A DNA stretch of 64,000 nt from NCBI GenBank assembly GCA_944359725.1, contig CALVSY010000006.1, forward strand, positions 1,876-65,875, read 5' to 3'. The stretch is from an uncultured Bacilli bacterium. Its GTDB lineage: Bacteria > Bacillota_I > Bacilli_A > RF39 > UBA660. Below the pieces are notes generated by a model. The model ran no database searches, was not told where the DNA came from, and worked only from the letters and a program-made list of their open reading frames with translations. The position numbers and the translations under genes were made by a program. Shown piece by piece: positions 35,501 to 45,660 of this stretch (position 1 is its first letter; each line of letters opens with the position of its first letter).

Positions 35501-37207
35501 TTAATTAATGTAACTTTTAAATGCGGTATAAACATGTTTTAATGTATCTTCTATTTCATCTACGTCATACTCATTTAATAAAGTCTTATAAGTCATTATG
35601 TATAAAAATTCATCATAAGTAATTTCGTTATTTAAAACAAGTGAAGAAGCTATTCTTAAAACCTTTTTTCTGGAAAAAACAAATCTTCCTATTTTATATT
35701 GCAGTTCATTTATCCTGTAATTTTCTTCTAAATGTTTTATAATTGGAACCCGATAAATCATTGGAACTATTTTGTCAGATCCATTTACACTTAAAATGCC
35801 ATCATATTCTTTTCTATTTTCTACCCTTGCATCTTGTAATCCAACACTTTTAACTATCGCCTTATACTCTCCTGCTTCTTCTTTTACAGAAGGATCAAGT
35901 CCTTTAGAAGTTATGTATTCCTTTCCTTCGTTTTTCTTTTTAAATATAACTACCGGAAGTGATTTTAAACTTGATAAAGTAGATAGATGTTCTAATATAT
36001 AATCTTTTAAATCAAGTTCTATAAATTGATCTAGCATAGTTATTATATTAGGTGAAAACAAAGTCATAGATCCTTTAATATCCTTTACGCTAATACCATA
36101 TAAACTAAGTTCATTTTCTCTTTTCATTAGTTTTTCAACCGGTATTTTCAAAATAGATTTCATTCCATCAAAAGTGCTATTATAAAAGTCATATTTTTTT
36201 AAATATTCACTTGTTCTAAACATCTCATCAGAATTTAACTCGTAATTATCATCATAATCATTATTAATAGACGATGAGGAACTATCTTTAGGTATTAAAC
36301 TACTACTTATTTTATTTCTATGATTTATTGGCACTATCTTATCTATCCAAAAATTATATATTTTTAACGTTGCGTTTAAATTATACCTATTATCATTAAT
36401 AATTTTATCATATGCGTTTTTAATAGTATTTTTTGACGTACCATTAATTAATATTTTCGCTAGAACATCGTTGTTAAAATTAAGTTTTAACTGTCTTATG
36501 GTATTTAATATTTCAGTTAAAGCGCCTAAAATATAATTAGCGGATATAATAGTTAAATAATTATTATCTTTTATATCAAAACCATATCTATTTAATATTT
36601 CTTTTACTTTTTCAAGACTTAGTGGAACATAACTTTTAAAGCAAGCTTTATTATACTTTTCTATTTCACTAATTAATTTTATTTTAAAAGCTTTATCAAC
36701 CAATTTATCATCACATATAAAATCTATAAAACTTTCATCCGTAATAACCTTTTTATTTTCAACATCACTTTTAATATCTTCAAACCACACCTTTAAAAGT
36801 TTCATATCTTCATTTTGTTTTTCAAACAAAGTAAGTCCATTAGAAAGTTTTTCATAATTTTCATATAAATCATATTCACTTTTCTTTACTTTATCTAAAA
36901 CGTTCATAACGAACTTATAATTACTTGATGTAAAAGATGGGCTTTTATTTACTAGTTCCCTTAAAAAACTAATAAATAACTCGGTTTCGTCCTTAGATAA
37001 AACATTGTACTTTAAAACGACTCTTCTAAATAAATCTCTGTTATTATATAAGAACATTGTTTCAAACTCATCAAAGTGATCACTAAGTTCCATAAATAAA
37101 TTTAAGAAGTTTTCTAAATCTTTTAATTCAAAAAACTTATCACTTTCAAGTTCCTTAGTAAATAATTTTATCTTGTAGTTTAAATATTTAATTATCATAT
37201 GATCCAC
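35501..37207 (-). CDS. Hypothetical protein (568 aa)
   Basis: Long ORF overlapping the upstream gene; no motif recognised. Confidence 0.75.
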   Translation of the reverse strand: MDHMIIKYLNYKIKLFTKELESDKFFELKDLENFLNLFMELSDHFDEFETMFLYNNRDLFRRVVLKYNVLSKDETELFISFLRELVNKSPSFTSSNYKFVMNVLDKVKKSEYDLYENYEKLSNGLTLFEKQNEDMKLLKVWFEDIKSDVENKKVITDESFIDFICDDKLVDKAFKIKLISEIEKYNKACFKSYVPLSLEKVKEILNRYGFDIKDNNYLTIISANYILGALTEILNTIRQLKLNFNNDVLAKILINGTSKNTIKNAYDKIINDNRYNLNATLKIYNFWIDKIVPINHRNKISSSLIPKDSSSSSINNDYDDNYELNSDEMFRTSEYLKKYDFYNSTFDGMKSILKIPVEKLMKRENELSLYGISVKDIKGSMTLFSPNIITMLDQFIELDLKDYILEHLSTLSSLKSLPVVIFKKKNEGKEYITSKGLDPSVKEEAGEYKAIVKSVGLQDARVENRKEYDGILSVNGSDKIVPMIYRVPIIKHLEENYRINELQYKIGRFVFSRKKVLRIASSLVLNNEITYDEFLYIMTYKTLLNEYDVDEIEDTLKHVYTAFKSYIN

Positions 37208-38564
37208 CTACAATCTGTTTTTTTACGTTTCTTATTTGATCTTTTTCTTTATCACAAATACTTTTTGTAATAGAAATAAAATTTTTGTTTTTCCATTTAT
37301 CCGCTGTTATGATTAAATAATTACTATCATCTAGAATAATAAATGACAAATAAGTTAAATCCTGCTTGACATAAAAGATATTTTCATTGCCATTAACTAT
37401 TTTTTTACCTCCTTTTTGATAAATTCCTTTTTTCATTTTTCCTATTATTTTTTCAGCATCACTTGCAAATTTCTTATCATTTTCGTTTTCTTTTAAAGCA
37501 TCAAAGTAATAACTACTATCCTTCTTTTCATTAATTAGATAATGTATCGTAATATATTTATCCTCATCTAAATAATTTTTCGTATCATTATCTTCATCTT
37601 TTATGGATTTATCAGTCATTTGCTTTTTAAAAATCACGTAATTAGAATACAACTTTTTTAATTCGTTTATTTCATCCGATAACTCACTTTCTGTACACTT
37701 ATCTTTATTATCGTTTATATAAGTACTTATATATGAAATATTTATAATTAAATATTTCATATAATCCGTTTGTGATAGTGAAGGAATCAAACTTTCAAGC
37801 AAATCACTTAACAAAACATCCTTATAAGCAATTGCCATGTTATAATCTTCTTTACTATATTCCTTTGGATACTCGCTTAATAACTTTTGAGCGTTATTTA
37901 AAAGGTTTTTAACTTCAAGTGAACAATTCTTAGATAAAACATTTTTTCTTCTTAAATTTTCTTCTTTTTGCAAGTTCTTAATAATTATTTTATCTTCTTT
38001 TTCTTTCTGAGATTTATTTATTTCATTTATCTTTTTACGATATACCTCCATGTTTTGTTTGCTAACAAAAGAACGTAGTCTTAAAATCTCATCATCTTTC
38101 AAACCTAATCTTATAAACATTCTTTCATGCCTAGAATCAAGATCGACAACATCTTTAGTCAAATTATCAAAAACCGATAATTCCTTATCTAAATCATAAT
38201 AAAAATAAATGGGATTTCTATTTAAATAACTTAATAGTTCTTTTAAACAATTAAGCATTTTATTTTTCTTTTCTACGGTACTATTATTAACGTTAGTAAC
38301 TAGATCAGTCCAAGAAAATTTTTTTAAATCATCCATGGAATTAATGATGTTATTTTTTATACGATCATCATTTACAACGTCATTTATAAGATTTCTTACG
38401 TTAGAATTTTTTATAAAATCATCAAACATAAACGTATCTTTATCTAAATACTCACATATAATGTTTATTAATCTTATTCTTTTATCATTTTGCTTTTTTA
38501 ATGCCTGATTATTTTTAATTAATTTTTGTTTGATTTGCACTAAATAAGTATTCAACAACCTCAC
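37188..38564 (-). CDS. Hypothetical coiled-coil protein with a possible degenerate RelE-like C-terminus
   Basis: Long ORF; C-terminal IFYVKQDLTYLSFIILDDSNYLIITAD beta-rich segment. Confidence 0.7.
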   Translation of the reverse strand: MRLLNTYLVQIKQKLIKNNQALKKQNDKRIRLINIICEYLDKDTFMFDDFIKNSNVRNLINDVVNDDRIKNNIINSMDDLKKFSWTDLVTNVNNSTVEKKNKMLNCLKELLSYLNRNPIYFYYDLDKELSVFDNLTKDVVDLDSRHERMFIRLGLKDDEILRLRSFVSKQNMEVYRKKINEINKSQKEKEDKIIIKNLQKEENLRRKNVLSKNCSLEVKNLLNNAQKLLSEYPKEYSKEDYNMAIAYKDVLLSDLLESLIPSLSQTDYMKYLIINISYISTYINDNKDKCTESELSDEINELKKLYSNYVIFKKQMTDKSIKDEDNDTKNYLDEDKYITIHYLINEKKDSSYYFDALKENENDKKFASDAEKIIGKMKKGIYQKGGKKIVNGNENIFYVKQDLTYLSFIILDDSNYLIITADKWKNKNFISITKSICDKEKDQIRNVKKQIVGGSYDN

Positions 38565-40940: not shown

Positions 40941-41846
40941 CTACTTTTCATAATAACTTCTTACATCTTTATTTAAATTAGAATTAAACTTCTTGTTTCT
41001 TATCATTTCTATTTCAAATTTATAAGGCGGATAACTTTTACCATCATCATACTTTATATAAGGTGTTTCAAGTATTTTAGGAACGTTTTTTAACCTTTCA
41101 TTATAAATAACGTTAATTAATGAATCAAAGCCTATATGGCCATATCCTATGTTTTCATGCCTGTCTTTTCTCGCACCCATATCATTTTTAGAATCATTAA
41201 CATGTACGCATCCTATTTTATGAGTTCCAATTACTTTATCAAAATGCTCTAAAAACTCATCAAAACGTTTAATGTCATACCCAGCATCATTTAAATGACA
41301 TGTATCTAAACATACCATTAACTTATCATTCAACTTAACACCATCAATTATTCTTTTAATATCTTCTAATTTAAAGCCTACTTCACTACCTTTTCCTGCC
41401 ATCGTCTCTAAACATATTAAAACGTTTTGATTAGAAGTTAAAATTATATTTAATGCATTTATTATGTTGTTTATTCCAGTATCAATATCTAAATCAACAA
41501 AACTTCCAGGATGAAGTACTAATTTTTTTATACCTAATTTTTCTACTCTTTTAATTTCTTCTTTTAAAAAATTAATTGCAAAAAGATACTTTTCTTCACT
41601 TTTATTGTTAGCTAAATTAATAATATAAGGAGCATGACAAACAACGTTTTCAATGTTAATATCATTTTCCTTCATTAATTCTTTAGCCTTATTTGTTAAA
41701 TCATCACTAATATCACATCTTTTAGTATTTTGAGGCGCTCCCGTATAAAACATAAAGGTATTCTCCCCATAACTTATAGCTTCCCTTGCACTTCCAAGTA
41801 ACTGCTCCTTACCATTAAAAGATACATGTGATCCTATTACTAACAT
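40941..41846 (-). CDS. nfo: Endonuclease IV
   Basis: HAPYIINL, LHPG, ETMAGKG, DTCH, HVNDSK, DRHENIG, ILETP. Confidence 0.95.
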   Translation of the reverse strand: MLVIGSHVSFNGKEQLLGSAREAISYGENTFMFYTGAPQNTKRCDISDDLTNKAKELMKENDINIENVVCHAPYIINLANNKSEEKYLFAINFLKEEIKRVEKLGIKKLVLHPGSFVDLDIDTGINNIINALNIILTSNQNVLICLETMAGKGSEVGFKLEDIKRIIDGVKLNDKLMVCLDTCHLNDAGYDIKRFDEFLEHFDKVIGTHKIGCVHVNDSKNDMGARKDRHENIGYGHIGFDSLINVIYNERLKNVPKILETPYIKYDDGKSYPPYKFEIEMIRNKKFNSNLNKDVRSYYEK

Positions 41847-41902
41847 AAATACACCTTCCTTCTATTAATAATTATACTAAATAATAGAAAAAGAGGCAAA
41901 AT

Positions 41903-41931
41903 AAAAAGATTGAATTAATTTCAATCTTTTT
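41903..41931 (-). terminator. Terminator of pilin A
   Basis: AAAAAGATTGAA / TTCAATCTTTTT arms. Confidence 0.75.
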
Positions 41932-42356
41932 TATGAACCAGTTACTTCACAATCAGTAAAAGTAATTGTTGCATCTTGACCAGAAATACTAATAGAATTT
42001 TTTGTATTTGTAGGAGTAATCATGTTATTAAATTGCCCTTTACCAGTTACTTTGATACTCCAAGAATTTCCACCAGAATCTTCAGTTACCGAAAGCTCAT
42101 AATCTTCATCATCAGCTTCTATGTCACTAGTATCTTTTATTTGTTGTAAAGTAATTCCTCCGGTTTGTGATGATGCGCATAACATTTTTGCATTTCTTTC
42201 AATCATTTGAACAGCATCATAAAATGAATCTCCTCTTGATTTTTTGATAGTGTTGTTGATTTGTGTTGTAGCAATAACCATTATGATTGCTAATACTACG
42301 ATAACCGCTAATAATTCGATTAACGTAAAACCTTTTTTGTTTTTTAATAATTTCAT
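41931..42356 (-). CDS. Type IV pilin A (class III signal peptide), faces the promoter in this orientation
   Basis: KKG|FTLIELLAVIVVLAII; Cys pair in the globular domain. Confidence 0.9.
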   Translation of the reverse strand: MKLLKNKKGFTLIELLAVIVVLAIIMVIATTQINNTIKKSRGDSFYDAVQMIERNAKMLCASSQTGGITLQQIKDTSDIEADDEDYELSVTEDSGGNSWSIKVTGKGQFNNMITPTNTKNSISISGQDATITFTDCEVTGS

Positions 42357-42407
42357 TTTTTCTTTCCCTTCCTTTTCTCCTTTTTTTACTTATAGTAAAC
42401 TGCTATT
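42259..42407. repeat. Left arm of a 149-bp perfect inverted repeat (partner 43575-43723)
   Basis: Hand alignment; covers the 5' UTR, SD and first ~33 codons of the pilin; similarity continues with mismatches for about 25-30 bp on each side. Confidence 0.92.
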
Positions 42408-42479
42408 AAATATCTATTTATCCTTAAGTATATTACTATAGGTATAAATACCTAATAGCAGTTTACTATTTTCATTTAA

Positions 42480-42508
42480 ATCTTATCATTATTGGAACAT
42501 ATTGTCAA
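42480..42508 (-). promoter_or_regulatory. sigmaA-type promoter inside the invertible segment, pointing at pilin A
   Basis: TTGACA(42508-42503)-17 bp-TGnTAAGAT(42485-42480). Confidence 0.7.
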
Positions 42509-42554
42509 TATTTATATTTTATAAAAATTATAATTGACATGAGATTTACAATAA

Positions 42555-43505
42555 TTATTTCATTAACTTATTGTATAAAATATTTATGCATTTTTCTTTT
42601 TGTGAAAGACTTGGATGAACATATAAATTTAATGTCATATTAATATTAGAATGTCCAAGTAATTCACTTACTGTTTTATAATCAATACCTAAGGATATAC
42701 AGTTAGTTGCAAACGTATGTCTTAATGAATGAAAATTAAAATGCTTAATTTCTAATTTTTTAAGAACATTATTAAAATAATTTCTGTATACTCTTGGTTC
42801 AATAAATTTATTAGAACCGGTTAAGATATAATTTTCATTATCACTTTTTAATGATTTTAATATTTTAATAAAATCCTTATTTAAAGGAATAATTCTGTTT
42901 GCGTTTTTTGTTTTTGGAGTTGATATTATAATTTTAGAATAATTATTATTTTTATCTTTTACATATATTCTTTGAATGGTTTTATTAATATTGACTAATC
43001 CATTGTTAAAATTAATATCTTTCCATTTTAATGCGCAAACTTCTCCAATTCTAATTCCTGCGAATAAACAAATTAATATACCAATATTTTTATAATTTAA
43101 ATTATTAATGGCATATTTCATTATCTTATTTTGCTCATCTTTTGTTAATACATACACGTTTTTATTAAAATTATTTTTTGGATAATTAAATTTTAAATTA
43201 AATACTTTTATTACCTTTTTATTAAATAAAAATCTTATACTTGCTTTTAAAATAGATATTATATCTTTTATTGTTTTTATAGATAATCCTAATTTATTTT
43301 TGCCACCATTTTTATATAGCATTAATATATAATCTTGAATTAATTCATGATTAATTATGTTAATTGAATAATCTCCTAATATTGGAATTATATAATTATA
43401 AATAATATTTGAATAATTCGCATACGTTGATTCTTTTACGTAATCTTTTTTATACTCTAACCATTTACACAAGTACTGCTTAAATCTTGTTTTTTTAATA
43501 GTCAC
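42555..43505 (-). CDS. Tyrosine recombinase/integrase
   Basis: GIRIGE (R), TPKT (K), HSLRH, LLGH, LNLYVH (Y); catalytic set intact. Confidence 0.92.
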   Translation of the reverse strand: MTIKKTRFKQYLCKWLEYKKDYVKESTYANYSNIIYNYIIPILGDYSINIINHELIQDYILMLYKNGGKNKLGLSIKTIKDIISILKASIRFLFNKKVIKVFNLKFNYPKNNFNKNVYVLTKDEQNKIMKYAINNLNYKNIGILICLFAGIRIGEVCALKWKDINFNNGLVNINKTIQRIYVKDKNNNYSKIIISTPKTKNANRIIPLNKDFIKILKSLKSDNENYILTGSNKFIEPRVYRNYFNNVLKKLEIKHFNFHSLRHTFATNCISLGIDYKTVSELLGHSNINMTLNLYVHPSLSQKEKCINILYNKLMK

Positions 43506-43574
43506 TTTTTTCTTCTCCTTCCAAATGGTTATTATATAACATTTAAGTAATATACTTAAGGATAATAGATGCCA

Positions 43575-43723
43575 AATAGCAGTTTACTATAAGTAAAAAA
43601 AGGAGAAAAGGAAGGGAAAGAAAAAATGAAATTATTAAAAAACAAAAAAGGTTTTACGTTAATCGAATTATTAGCGGTTATCGTAGTATTAGCAATCATA
43701 ATGGTTATTGCTACAACACAAAT
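43575..43723. repeat. Right arm of the 149-bp perfect inverted repeat
   Basis: Reverse complement of 42259-42407. Confidence 0.92.
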
Positions 43724-44135
43724 TAACAACACTATTAAAAAATCAAGGGCAAATTCGTTCTATGATGCAGCACAAATGATTGAAAGAAATACTAACATGA
43801 TATGTGCAAGTAGAACAGATGGTAATGGAGAATTAACGAAAGAAGACATCGCTGAATTAAGTGACATTGAATATAGTGGTTCTGGTAGTTCTGCTACTAT
43901 TACAGATGAGGATTATGATATTGAAATAACTTTGGGTTCAACATCAAGTGATCCATCAACAATAAAAATCATTGCTAAAACCGGTGGCCAGTTTGATGGT
44001 GTTGATTTAAAAGACTATTATCACTTAAATACATGCACCACTGGTAGTGGTACAACTTGTGAGGGTTCCAGAATGAAAGAATCATTTACTGGATTAGAAA
44101 GTAATTCTATGACATTTAAAGCAGAATGTCATTAA
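43626..44135 (+). CDS. Type IV pilin B (class III signal peptide)
   Basis: First 41 aa identical to pilin A; divergent C-terminal domain with 4 Cys. Confidence 0.9.
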   Translation: MKLLKNKKGFTLIELLAVIVVLAIIMVIATTQINNTIKKSRANSFYDAAQMIERNTNMICASRTDGNGELTKEDIAELSDIEYSGSGSSATITDEDYDIEITLGSTSSDPSTIKIIAKTGGQFDGVDLKDYYHLNTCTTGSGTTCEGSRMKESFTGLESNSMTFKAECH

Positions 44136-44143
44136 TTATTCAT

Positions 44144-44171
44144 AAAAAGATTGAAAAATTCAATCTTTTTT
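44144..44171 (+). terminator. Terminator of pilin B (could also terminate rsmD)
   Basis: Same 12-bp arms as the pilin A terminator, different loop. Confidence 0.75.
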
Positions 44172-44174
44172 ATT

Positions 44175-44732
44175 TTACTTTCTTTTTAATATAGTAACAG
44201 TTTTATCTCCATAACGTCTTGTTTTATAAATAATAAAATTACTATATTTTTCATAATTAATATCAAGTTCTGTTTCACATACTATAAGGACGTTATTAGA
44301 AAGTATTTTTATATTATCATTTATTGTTGTTAAAGATTTATCTAGTTCATTAGTTTTATATGGTGGATCTAAGAATATAATATCAAATACTTTTCTATTA
44401 CCTATAAAGTATTTTAAAGCGTCTTTTGCATCATTATTTAAAACATATGCATTATTAATATTAAGCATTTTAAGGTTTTCATTAATGGTTTTAATAGCAA
44501 TCTTATTATTATCTACTAAGAAAGCTTTTTTAGCGCCGTTAGATAATGCCTCTATCCCTAAATTACCTGTTCCAGAGTATAAATCTAGTATGGTAGAATC
44601 TTTTATATAATCTTGAATCATTGCGAATACTGATTCTTTTACCCGATCCATGGTAGGTCTTGTACCAACTATATTAAAGCCTTTTAATGTTCTTCCTTTA
44701 TATTTACCACTAATAATTTTCATTTGTATCAC
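44175..44732 (-). CDS. rsmD: 16S rRNA m2G966 methyltransferase
   Basis: TRPTMDRVKES, LDLYSGTG.LGIEALS.GA, DPPY. Confidence 0.92.
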   Translation of the reverse strand: MIQMKIISGKYKGRTLKGFNIVGTRPTMDRVKESVFAMIQDYIKDSTILDLYSGTGNLGIEALSNGAKKAFLVDNNKIAIKTINENLKMLNINNAYVLNNDAKDALKYFIGNRKVFDIIFLDPPYKTNELDKSLTTINDNIKILSNNVLIVCETELDINYEKYSNFIIYKTRRYGDKTVTILKRK

Positions 44733-45660
44733 CTACATTACATTTTATCATACTAATAAGTAATTTTAAATAATGCTTATCATTTAGTTTATTAATAGCA
44801 AATACTTTCTTACCTAAGTCTTTTAATGAAGCTCCTAGGTTATATAATTCATTGTTATCAATTATTATGAACCTGTCATAAAATGCATTTGTATATTTTA
44901 TTCTTAATAAAGGATACTCACTATTAAATTTATTAATATCAGTGTTATTTAATTTACTTTTGTTTTCATCTGTTATTAAAAGTACTACAACACTTACTTT
45001 CTTCTTAGATAGAATATCAAGCGTTACTTTATCTACATAATTATCTATTATTATGATTTCTTTATTTGCTTTACTTATAATATCTACTAAAAGACTATAA
45101 GCATCATATATCTCTCCACCAAAAAACAATTTACTTTTTAAGTCTTCTTTTCTATCGAATTTATCAAATATTATTTCAAAATTTTTATCATGTTCCTTTA
45201 AAGTATTTTCTATAAAATCTGTTTTATTTTCTATATTTATTATTCTTTTAAATACATTTTTATTTTCATTTATAAACCTTCTCATATAAACAAATGCATT
45301 CATTATGTTTACACTTATTTTAGCAGCATTATTTGTTTTCAAAACACTTGATAGCATCGCAACTCCCTGCTCTGTAAATACATATGGAAGTTTTCTTATT
45401 CCTCCATAAAAATTATCATTTGAAGTCCCAATTTGGGACTTCAAGTTTTGATATTCTTCTTTAGTTAATTGAAAATAAAAATTGCTTGGAAATCGTTCTA
45501 TGTTCCTTTTTACTGCTTGATTTATTGTCTTTGTTCCATTAGCGCACCCATAAAGAATGGCTAAATCACTATCTAGCATAACCTCTACACCTCTTACTTC
45601 ATATATCAAATTTTTTATATCTATATTTTCTTTTAGTTCTTGCATTTTTACCTCCTTCAT
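44710..45660 (-). CDS. ORF6N DNA-binding domain protein
   Basis: VMLDSDLA.LY, NQAVKRNIERFP, PYVFTEQGVAMLS. Confidence 0.85.
   Translation of the reverse strand: MKEVKMQELKENIDIKNLIYEVRGVEVMLDSDLAILYGCANGTKTINQAVKRNIERFPSNFYFQLTKEEYQNLKSQIGTSNDNFYGGIRKLPYVFTEQGVAMLSSVLKTNNAAKISVNIMNAFVYMRRFINENKNVFKRIINIENKTDFIENTLKEHDKNFEIIFDKFDRKEDLKSKLFFGGEIYDAYSLLVDIISKANKEIIIIDNYVDKVTLDILSKKKVSVVVLLITDENKSKLNNTDINKFNSEYPLLRIKYTNAFYDRFIIIDNNELYNLGASLKDLGKKVFAINKLNDKHYLKLLISMIKCNVGDTNENY

Follow-up and report, generated by a model that had tools for sequence, protein, structure and literature searches.

Can a gut bacterium exchange one type IV pilin for another by turning over a short piece of DNA that carries its own recombinase gene? 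The question is raised by positions 41903-44171 of a 64,000-nucleotide stretch of DNA (hereafter the window; contig CALVSY010000006.1 of assembly GCA_944359725.1, positions 1,876 to 65,875) from an uncultured Bacilli bacterium of the RF39 lineage, where two divergent pilin genes, here called pilin A and pilin B, enclose a gene for a tyrosine recombinase. An earlier note, written from the letters of the window, had taken the locus to be a recombinase-driven pilin switch. From the computational analysis reported here we consider it probable that a recombinase-carrying promoter cassette inverts at two core sites and thereby expresses either pilin A or pilin B. The window has a G+C content of 26%, the host genome (G000) amounts to 1.21 Mb in 30 contigs, and the sequencing runs listed as holding locus sequence (n=21) are mostly labelled chicken gut metagenome.

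The segment between the two pilin genes

The recombinase gene occupies 42555-43505 on the minus strand, begins with GTG and encodes 316 aa. The protein matches PF00589 (E 3.8e-31; 108.6 bits against a cut-off of 27.1) and has an N-terminal SAM-like domain (PF14659, E 3.5e-13), in keeping with the intact tyrosine recombinase that had been recognised in the interior. The motifs GIRIGE, HSLRHT, GHSN and LYVH, which we take to contain the catalytic R, HxxR, H and Y (the tyrosine being residue 295), are kept in 7/7 orthologues, and ratios of nonsynonymous to synonymous substitution (dN/dS) of 0.19-0.33 in 5 pairs indicate that the gene is under purifying selection. A putative -10 element of its own promoter (TATATAAT, 43531-43538, minus strand) can be read from the sequence, with a -35 that would fall in one of the core sites described below (core R). 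The recombinase of G033, which shares the locus, is 84% identical, and the next paralogue within G000 only 31%. A scan of genome contigs with the recombinase returned 8 loci, the only close one being on a contig of G033 (L066), and a scan of metagenome contigs returned 9 loci, none above 32% identity.

The gene is enclosed by an inverted repeat with arms at 42174-42440 and 43543-43808. At its centre is a perfect block, 42259-42407 / 43575-43723, of exactly 149 nt, fully complementary and not extendable by a single base in either direction; it is embedded in an imperfect repeat, 42174-42437 / 43546-43808, of 264 nt and 92.4% identity. The block contains 51 nt of 5' untranslated region (UTR) with the Shine-Dalgarno (SD) sequence, followed by codons 1-33, so the description of a perfect 149-bp inverted repeat over 5' UTR, SD and N-terminal helix was correct. 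At the inner edge of every repeat arm stands a palindromic core motif, TTAAGT-N5-ACTTAAGG. Core L, the proposed crossover site (42422-42440, minus strand), reads TATAGT-AATAT-ACTTAAGG, and core R (43543-43561, plus strand) reads TTAAGT-AATAT-ACTTAAGG; the motif is conserved in 8/8 species and common to hsdS invertons. Four substitutions and one indel separate the arms in the stretch from core to perfect block; the differing bases close to the 19-20-bp core lie at 42408-42418 and 43565-43574. A motif search of the G000 genome found these two core sites only; a third core-like site at C1:104733, a partial match beside unrelated genes, was dropped as a chance hit.

We propose that the segment of about 1.12 kb between the cores is a self-contained invertible cassette, which would hold the recombinase gene and, 3' of it, the only strong promoter of the locus. 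The recombinase would bind both palindromic cores (6-bp arms, 5-bp spacer), exchange strands and flip the cassette, and the promoter, directed at pilin A in the assembled orientation, would drive pilin B after inversion. Because the 5' UTR, the SD and the first 33 codons are identical, either pilin would receive the same translation start, prepilin leader and helix. Either one would serve a single pilus machine encoded elsewhere, and the exposed C-terminal domain alone would change.

The promoter, TTGACA-17-(TG)-TAAGAT at 42508-42480 on the minus strand, matches at 10/12 positions with a TG extension, lies 3' of the recombinase stop codon and is aimed at pilin A. The promoter scan as a whole was not above chance (26 sites against 24.4 expected), and the weight given to this promoter therefore rests on its conservation in relatives and not on the scan: a TTGAC[AT]-17-TGnTAnnAT promoter stands in the same place, 3' of the recombinase gene, in 8/8 cassettes that have at least two pilins. 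No conserved promoter was seen on the side of pilin B in the 8 cassette species compared, and none was detected for pilin B in the window. One clear outward promoter towards pilin A, with no equivalent before pilin B, is what the earlier note had described. A promoter-like site facing pilin B at 43427-43456 (plus strand, 9/12) was rejected, being placed within conserved recombinase codons and not kept by other species.

The position of the promoter would divide the pilin leader between the cassette and the fixed DNA. The stretch 42469-42444 (minus strand), about 4 nt past the predicted transcript start (near 42473) and within the invertible segment, is complementary to 42417-42392 (minus strand), which lies in the pilin A arm of the repeat, outside the invertible segment. 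The first bases of the transcript would in this way pair with repeat sequence 5' of the SD, and only the promoter-linked pilin would acquire a long 5' stem-loop. In the minimum free energy structure of the G000 leader the result is a stem of 26 pairs that encloses the core, at -34.1 kcal/mol compared with -9.4 ± 2.4 for shuffled sequences. Single-sequence folds of the promoter-linked leader give a long-range stem in 8/8 species, each with the 5' arm inside the cassette, the 3' arm directly ahead of the SD within the fixed repeat, and the core contained in the loop. The 5' arm begins at 1-4 nt of the fold in six species and at 70-71 nt in G024 and G061. The stem is strong in G000, G033 and G015 (z-scores of -10.4, -7.8 and -5.1) and weak in the other five species (z -1.3 to -3.2), and the arm sequences vary among species. 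RNAalifold on a MAFFT alignment of the 8 leaders recovered the core palindrome alone (7 pairs, no compensatory change) and not the long stem, whose arms cannot be aligned; the leader stem thus rests on single-sequence folds. An Rfam scan of 41800-44300 gave no matching family, only two chance-level matches with E 0.51 and 0.98.

Five pairs in the stem of G033, as we read its fold, are G-U on the sense strand of the pilin and would be A-C mismatches on the opposite strand, which favours a role in the RNA, such as that of a 5' stabiliser. Stems at the 5' end that stabilise an mRNA are known from Bacillus. The cassette arm of G000 would fit the pilin B side (43565-43590, plus strand) just as well as it fits the pilin A side, despite their differing sequences; the hypothetical leader with pilin B on folds at -36.1 kcal/mol, a hint, though no more, that the cassette arm is under selection for both partners. 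As a separate observation, the complement of the recombinase SD region (43487-43522) can pair with the pilin B SD (43610-43645), a pairing that would hide the ribosome site of pilin B in any RNA reading through on the plus strand, perhaps only by coincidence.

The two genes served by these leaders are complete and point away from each other, as the earlier note stated. Pilin A (41931-42356, minus strand, 141 aa) is the promoter-proximal one in the assembly, and pilin B (43626-44135, plus strand) has 169 aa. Both have a class III signal peptide of the G/F-T-L-I-E type with a hydrophobic helix and match PF07963 (E 7e-9 and 1e-8, respectively) and TIGR02532. Protein alignment agrees with the reported difference between the C-terminal domains: residues 1-41 are identical and the sequences near-identical to residue 60, after which they diverge until the last 30-45 residues are unalignable. 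The terminators, for which identical arms had been reported, indeed fold into 12-bp stems with identical arms at 41903-41931 (minus strand; followed by a U run; -10.6 kcal/mol, z -5.3) and 44144-44170 (plus strand; -9.6 kcal/mol, z -4.4). The placement of the cassette between rsmD and nfo is likewise secured by matches to PF03602 (E 9.5e-54) for the rsmD-family methyltransferase on the right (44175-44732, minus strand) and to PF01261 (E 1.2e-49) for the nfo-like AP (apurinic/apyrimidinic) endonuclease on the left (40941-41846, minus strand). Both are fixed flanks, and nfo adjoins the pilin locus in relatives.

The pilus machine is encoded on another contig, C10, with an assembly ATPase (T2SSE, 436 bits), a platform protein (T2SSF), a prepilin peptidase (Peptidase_A24) and two small pilin-like genes. 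An obvious major pilin is absent from this C10 cluster, and for this reason the stand-alone pilin between rsmD and nfo is probably the major subunit. Contig C19 of G000 has a second cluster of ATPase and platform protein. Contigs C21, C13, C1, C2, C24 and C18 are also of note: the genome has eleven N_methyl matches, several of them in very long frames of 341-612 aa, which suggests large pilin-like surface proteins.

Conservation in the genus and kinship with hsdS invertons

A recombinase match at E ≤ 1e-40 was present in 11/38 genomes of the genus, in nine of them at the rsmD-nfo pilin locus. The order nfo - pilin - recombinase - pilin - rsmD occurs in G000, G033, G024, G061, G015, G035, G031, G029 and, decayed, in G010 (9/38). 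The 30 rsmD neighbourhoods examined comprised 16 loci with one pilin co-directional with rsmD and nfo, one with two tandem pilins, seven with the cassette (including the decayed G010), three with a contig break beside rsmD and three with a core-bearing pilin for which no recombinase was found (G008, G017 and G028). In 17/17 loci without recombinase the core motif was absent 5' of the pilin, and a promoter of the same type stood 23-42 nt from the ATG; the leaders of the three core-bearing loci resemble cassette leaders. The core thus goes with the recombinase and not with pilin expression as such. All cassette species with two or more pilins (8/8) have the core motif at the inner edge of both arms and an intact pilin B. 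G010 has lost the rsmD-side pilin and core R together with the first 18 codons of the recombinase, and what is left of the recombinase gene is interrupted by many stops, which ties the enzyme to the two-pilin state.

The repeat arms evolve in concert. Arm identity within a genome is 0.86-1.00 compared with 0.69-0.85 between species in 5/6 pairs, and an nfo-side arm is no closer to the nfo-side arm of another species than to the rsmD-side arm of that species, from which it follows that the arms keep exchanging sequence.

Two species have more than two pilins. G061 (L026 / L074, G061:C4) has four small pilins in the order W(+), X(-), recombinase(-), Y(+), Z(-), and G024 (L075, G024:C11) has three. 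The outer pilins of both lie tail-to-tail with the inner ones and carry the same 5' UTR and core (TTAAGC or a changed spacer base), and nothing promoter-like was seen 5' of the outer pilins in either genome. Such a layout would make sense if a silent gene were brought to the single promoter by inversion between two cores. We also observed that the two outer pilins of G061, 87% identical in their C-terminal parts, make up a 622-nt inverted repeat about the whole unit, and that a long pilin (306 and 265 aa) stands beside rsmD in one species and beside nfo in the other.

The protein matches phage-integrase families and the locus contains a 16-nt direct repeat (42454-42469 and 43575-43590). Both would fit an integrase of a small mobile element that had landed in the pilin locus and performs integration and excision instead of inversion. 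We hold this to be very improbable: the sites are inverted and not direct, the cassette sits at one chromosomal place in 9 genomes, other element genes are not present, and the direct 16-mer is explained by the leader stem.

Among 401 sampled genomes of the order, homologues of the recombinase at E ≤ 1e-45 were present in 66 genomes and 34/145 genera. Beyond the genus, the closest ones (60-65% identity; G298, G392, G234, G207 and G398) lie between two inverted hsdS genes. The genes flanking them start MNVPKLRFKEF, and 3/3 tested proteins match Methylase_S. In a tree of 38 recombinases, seven pilin-locus enzymes and seven hsdS enzymes fall within one clade of 20 rows, inside which the branch order is not resolved; the rows not entered in the tree, three duplicates and ten matches at or below ~32% identity, are L074, L075, L077, L027-L029, L068-L071, L018, L019 and L025. 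The hsdS loci are laid out like the pilin cassette, with an outward promoter 3' of the recombinase gene. In 13/13 of the hsdS 5' regions printed, the motif ATTAAACTTAAGGAC stands at the inner edge of a 75-83-nt repeat, and the ACTTAAGGA motif is common to all 13 and to the pilin arms. Two small contigs of G002 that carry only a recombinase, with terminal inverted repeats of 75 nt and 17 nt, were set aside as hsdS invertons and not pilin cassettes.

Both orientations are found among the hsdS cassettes of near-identical genomes. When G298 is compared with G207 (L102, G298:C1:16500-29500; L103, G207:C8:16500-29500), the interior aligns directly over 1260 nt at 92.1%, while the hsdS-hsdM-hsdR block aligns inverted over 5881 nt at 97.2%, and the two alignments overlap in the 80-nt repeat. 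The orientation in G234 is that of G207 and the orientation in G392 that of G298 (L102-L105), i.e. two against two in four genomes. A column comparison of four arms places the change from interior-like to flank-like sequence within ~22 nt containing ACTTAAGGA. We read this as natural evidence that enzymes 64% identical to the recombinase of the window invert their own hsdS cassette at the ACTTAAGGA motif.

More distant paralogues (L090, L091, L093, L095 and L097; 39-45% identity) are bounded by perfect inverted repeats of 24-29 nt, themselves palindromes with a short spacer, which is the usual form of a tyrosine-recombinase core site. The genes next to them encode large proteins that have either no Pfam match or a weak one to dockerin, and these paralogues may mark further invertible cassettes.

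Orientation of the cassette and its possible causes

The assembled pilin loci themselves show a single orientation. In the comparison with relatives that the earlier note called for, the cassette is conserved; in the consensus assemblies of 9/9 pilin cassettes, where a minority form would not be visible, the recombinase runs in the same direction as rsmD and/or nfo, with the promoter aimed at the nfo-side pilin. The alternative orientation was not found among these 9. Fossil loci are locked in the same way, two of them (G017 and G028) with promoter, core and pilin kept and one (G010) decayed.

Four sequencing runs (X1-X4) were examined as Logan contigs with k=31, which omit rare variants. The run contigs end 30 nt into the perfect repeat, and since k=31 contigs end inside the repeat the pilin bodies cannot be linked to the interior; linkage could be followed at the cores. 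Contigs of X1, X3 and X4 cross the left core with the promoter side joined to the distinguishing bases of the window, and X1 and X3 each have one interior contig that in addition spans the right core, linked there as in the window. No alternative junction was present among the contigs listed for X1-X4, from which minority forms are dropped. In X3, 41791-42245 had no contig of at least 90% likeness, though the interior and pilin B were covered.

Three further points, together with the uniform orientation, weigh against the proposed switch. The perfect 149-nt block lies outside the proposed crossover, and its identity needs gene conversion, since a site-specific reaction cannot account for it. 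In G024 a single spacer base distinguishes the two inner cores and would be expected to impair strand exchange at this locus. Finally, the recombinase of G029 has a single frameshift, and yet its arms are 98.8% alike; the frameshift could be an assembly error.

The same contigs bear on the repeat itself. The window derives from short-read metagenome assembly and the k=31 contigs break at the repeat, which would be the grounds for regarding the repeat, or the join across it, as an assembly artefact. There is next to no chance of this: eight other species' assemblies have the same layout, and each part of the locus is reproduced by Logan contigs of the four runs, which come from 3 studies. The earlier note had named such an artefact among the findings that would refute its reading. 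Run X1, possibly the source sample, has the perfect block as a contig of its own, of 149 nt. In X3 the left arm carries a 2-nt insertion and two substitutions near the SD (42385-42389) and the right arm equals the window, which reduces the perfect block of that strain to 127 nt. Arm identity changes at strain level.

Given a perfect repeat of 149-193 nt, a good substrate, general homologous recombination could invert the segment with the recombinase not the driver. Concerted evolution outside the core needs gene conversion anyway, and the arms of G029 are alike in the presence of a frameshifted recombinase. We nevertheless give this explanation only a slim chance, because recombinase and core motif are conserved in all cassettes as well as in the hsdS relatives, whose breakpoint falls on the motif, and because the perfect palindromic repeats of the distant paralogues, at 24-29 nt, are too short for efficient homologous recombination.

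A more serious competitor, though still an unlikely one, is a locked relic. The locus would be a former inversion switch or a single inverted duplication, now fixed with pilin A on, with pilin B silent or weakly read from an unrecognised promoter and the recombinase kept for some other reason. The orientation shared by all nine cassettes and the three fossils, the lack of an alternative junction in the listed contigs and the spacer mismatch of G024 speak for it. Against it stand the intact pilin B genes of the two-or-more-pilin species, the purifying selection on the recombinase, and arms that are still being homogenised, at strain level included (X3). Another target of the enzyme is not evident because G000 has only two core sites, and in G010 the recombinase decayed where pilin B was lost.

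Returning to the proposed inversion of the cassette, the earlier note's switch reading stands as far as the architecture and the comparative data go, which fit it, and falls short in that inversion was not seen at any pilin locus. That the cassette inverts at the pilin locus, that one pilin is expressed to the exclusion of the other, that the two differ antigenically and that the leader stem acts as described is our inference. The orientation bias is real and needs an explanation. Its cause is possibly selection for the nfo-side pilin in the gut, possibly a cost of strong expression from the opposite strand, nearly all long open reading frames (ORFs) of the window being on the minus strand, or possibly a loss of activity. 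More tentatively, and with somewhat less than even confidence, we suggest that a cassette family has been re-targeted from hsdS to a stand-alone, probably major, pilin gene within one family of small-genome gut bacteria, giving expression shufflons of two to four pilins. The leader would be split across the recombination site, the stem-loop (-34 kcal/mol in G000) would form only on the pilin that captures the promoter, and the second pilin would be a rarely used escape variant.

Some features of the surroundings can be added. A gene for an ORF6N-domain protein of 316 aa (44710-45660, minus strand) overlaps the start of rsmD; most relatives have no similar-sized gene in this position, and two have an ORF of ~300 aa. 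Two large overlapping ORFs of 568 and 458 aa (35501-37207 and 37188-38564, both minus strand) match no Pfam family at E ≤ 0.001.

Comparison with known systems

Phase-variable pili are known among chaperone-usher pili, Bacteroidales fimbriae, Moraxella and plasmid shufflons. In a literature search that had most subscription journals and supplements outside its reach, a promoter cassette of a tyrosine recombinase that alternates whole type IV pilin genes in a lineage of Gram-positive type was not found.

In the H-segment of Salmonella, with Hin and fljBA, the recombinase gene and an outward promoter lie inside the invertible segment, as here. Hin is a serine recombinase, however, and one orientation drives a gene and the other nothing, the alternative flagellin being controlled through a repressor. 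In Moraxella it is the two C-terminal coding parts that lie on the inverting segment, behind a fixed promoter and N-terminal coding part, and Piv is not known as a tyrosine recombinase. Here, by contrast, both genes are complete and divergent, their C-terminal parts lie outside the repeats and the promoter would move. The comparison with Moraxella Piv in the earlier note is therefore useful as an analogy, while geometry and enzyme class both differ. What is shared is the outcome, since M. bovis and M. lacunata likewise alternate two type IV pilins by DNA inversion at tfpQ/tfpI (PMC11868660).

The IncI plasmid shufflon with Rci and PilV (PMC9045228, PMC13729200 and 10.1101/2024.10.25.620183) resembles the present locus in using a tyrosine recombinase to diversify a type IV pilus protein through inversion; it differs in that C-terminal exons of one minor pilin are swapped at many sfx sites with a static promoter, where we find two sites, one in the 5' UTR of each of two complete genes. 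The locus is thus of neither the Moraxella Piv nor the IncI shufflon type, because in these the C-terminal coding parts move behind a fixed start. In fimS of E. coli, with FimB and FimE, inversion of a promoter by a tyrosine recombinase controls a pilus, as proposed here; fimS differs as an ON/OFF switch of 314 bp with the recombinase genes outside and chaperone-usher pili as the product.

The hsdS 'epigenetic invertons' of type I restriction-modification systems in S. pneumoniae (cod/ivr), E. faecalis, S. agalactiae and T. denticola share with our locus a tyrosine invertase gene inside the region between inverted target copies. Invertase genes are often placed within the inverting region, and inversion of such hsdS invertons has been shown experimentally (PMC7672463). 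In these systems, according to that paper, the first hsdS is read from an upstream fixed promoter and domains are shuffled; here the genes are pilins, the promoter appears mobile and whole genes would be swapped. The hsdS invertons of the same bacterial family stand closer, with recombinases 60-65% identical, the ACTTAAGGA motif and the layout in common and both orientations occurring.

The other close parallel is with mycoplasmas. Vpma with Xer1 of Mycoplasma agalactiae, Vsp of M. bovis and Vsa with HvsR of M. pulmonis have a single promoter, several genes whose conserved 5' UTR contains the recombination site, a locus-encoded tyrosine recombinase of Xer type, and silent genes that inversion activates. 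For Vpma, with its unique promoter and sites in the 5' UTRs, knock-out and complementation identified Xer1 as the driver of switching, and HvsR acts on a surface-protein locus as well as on an hsd locus, which parallels the kinship of pilin and hsdS cassettes here (PMC2268961). The multi-pilin loci of G061 and G024 match the Vpma layout in the single promoter, the site in shared 5' UTRs and the silent promoterless copies, and G000 has two genes only. The mycoplasma systems differ in that they concern lipoprotein genes and have the recombinase gene beside the inverting region; here the genes are pilins, the recombinase gene lies within, and most species have two genes.

Should the cassette flip, uncultured gut bacteria with small genomes would be changing their principal surface filament by means of an enzyme family that also varies their DNA methylation, which would matter for the use of phage receptors, for escape from antibodies and for adhesion in the chicken gut. 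The hsdS and pilin cassettes, as sister systems with one site motif, would form a compact and portable set of recombinase and site whose specificity is directly testable. Collectively, sequence kinship places the enzyme with the hsdS-inverton invertases, and by analogy the locus appears to work most like a cross between a Hin-type cassette and a mycoplasma promoter-capture system.

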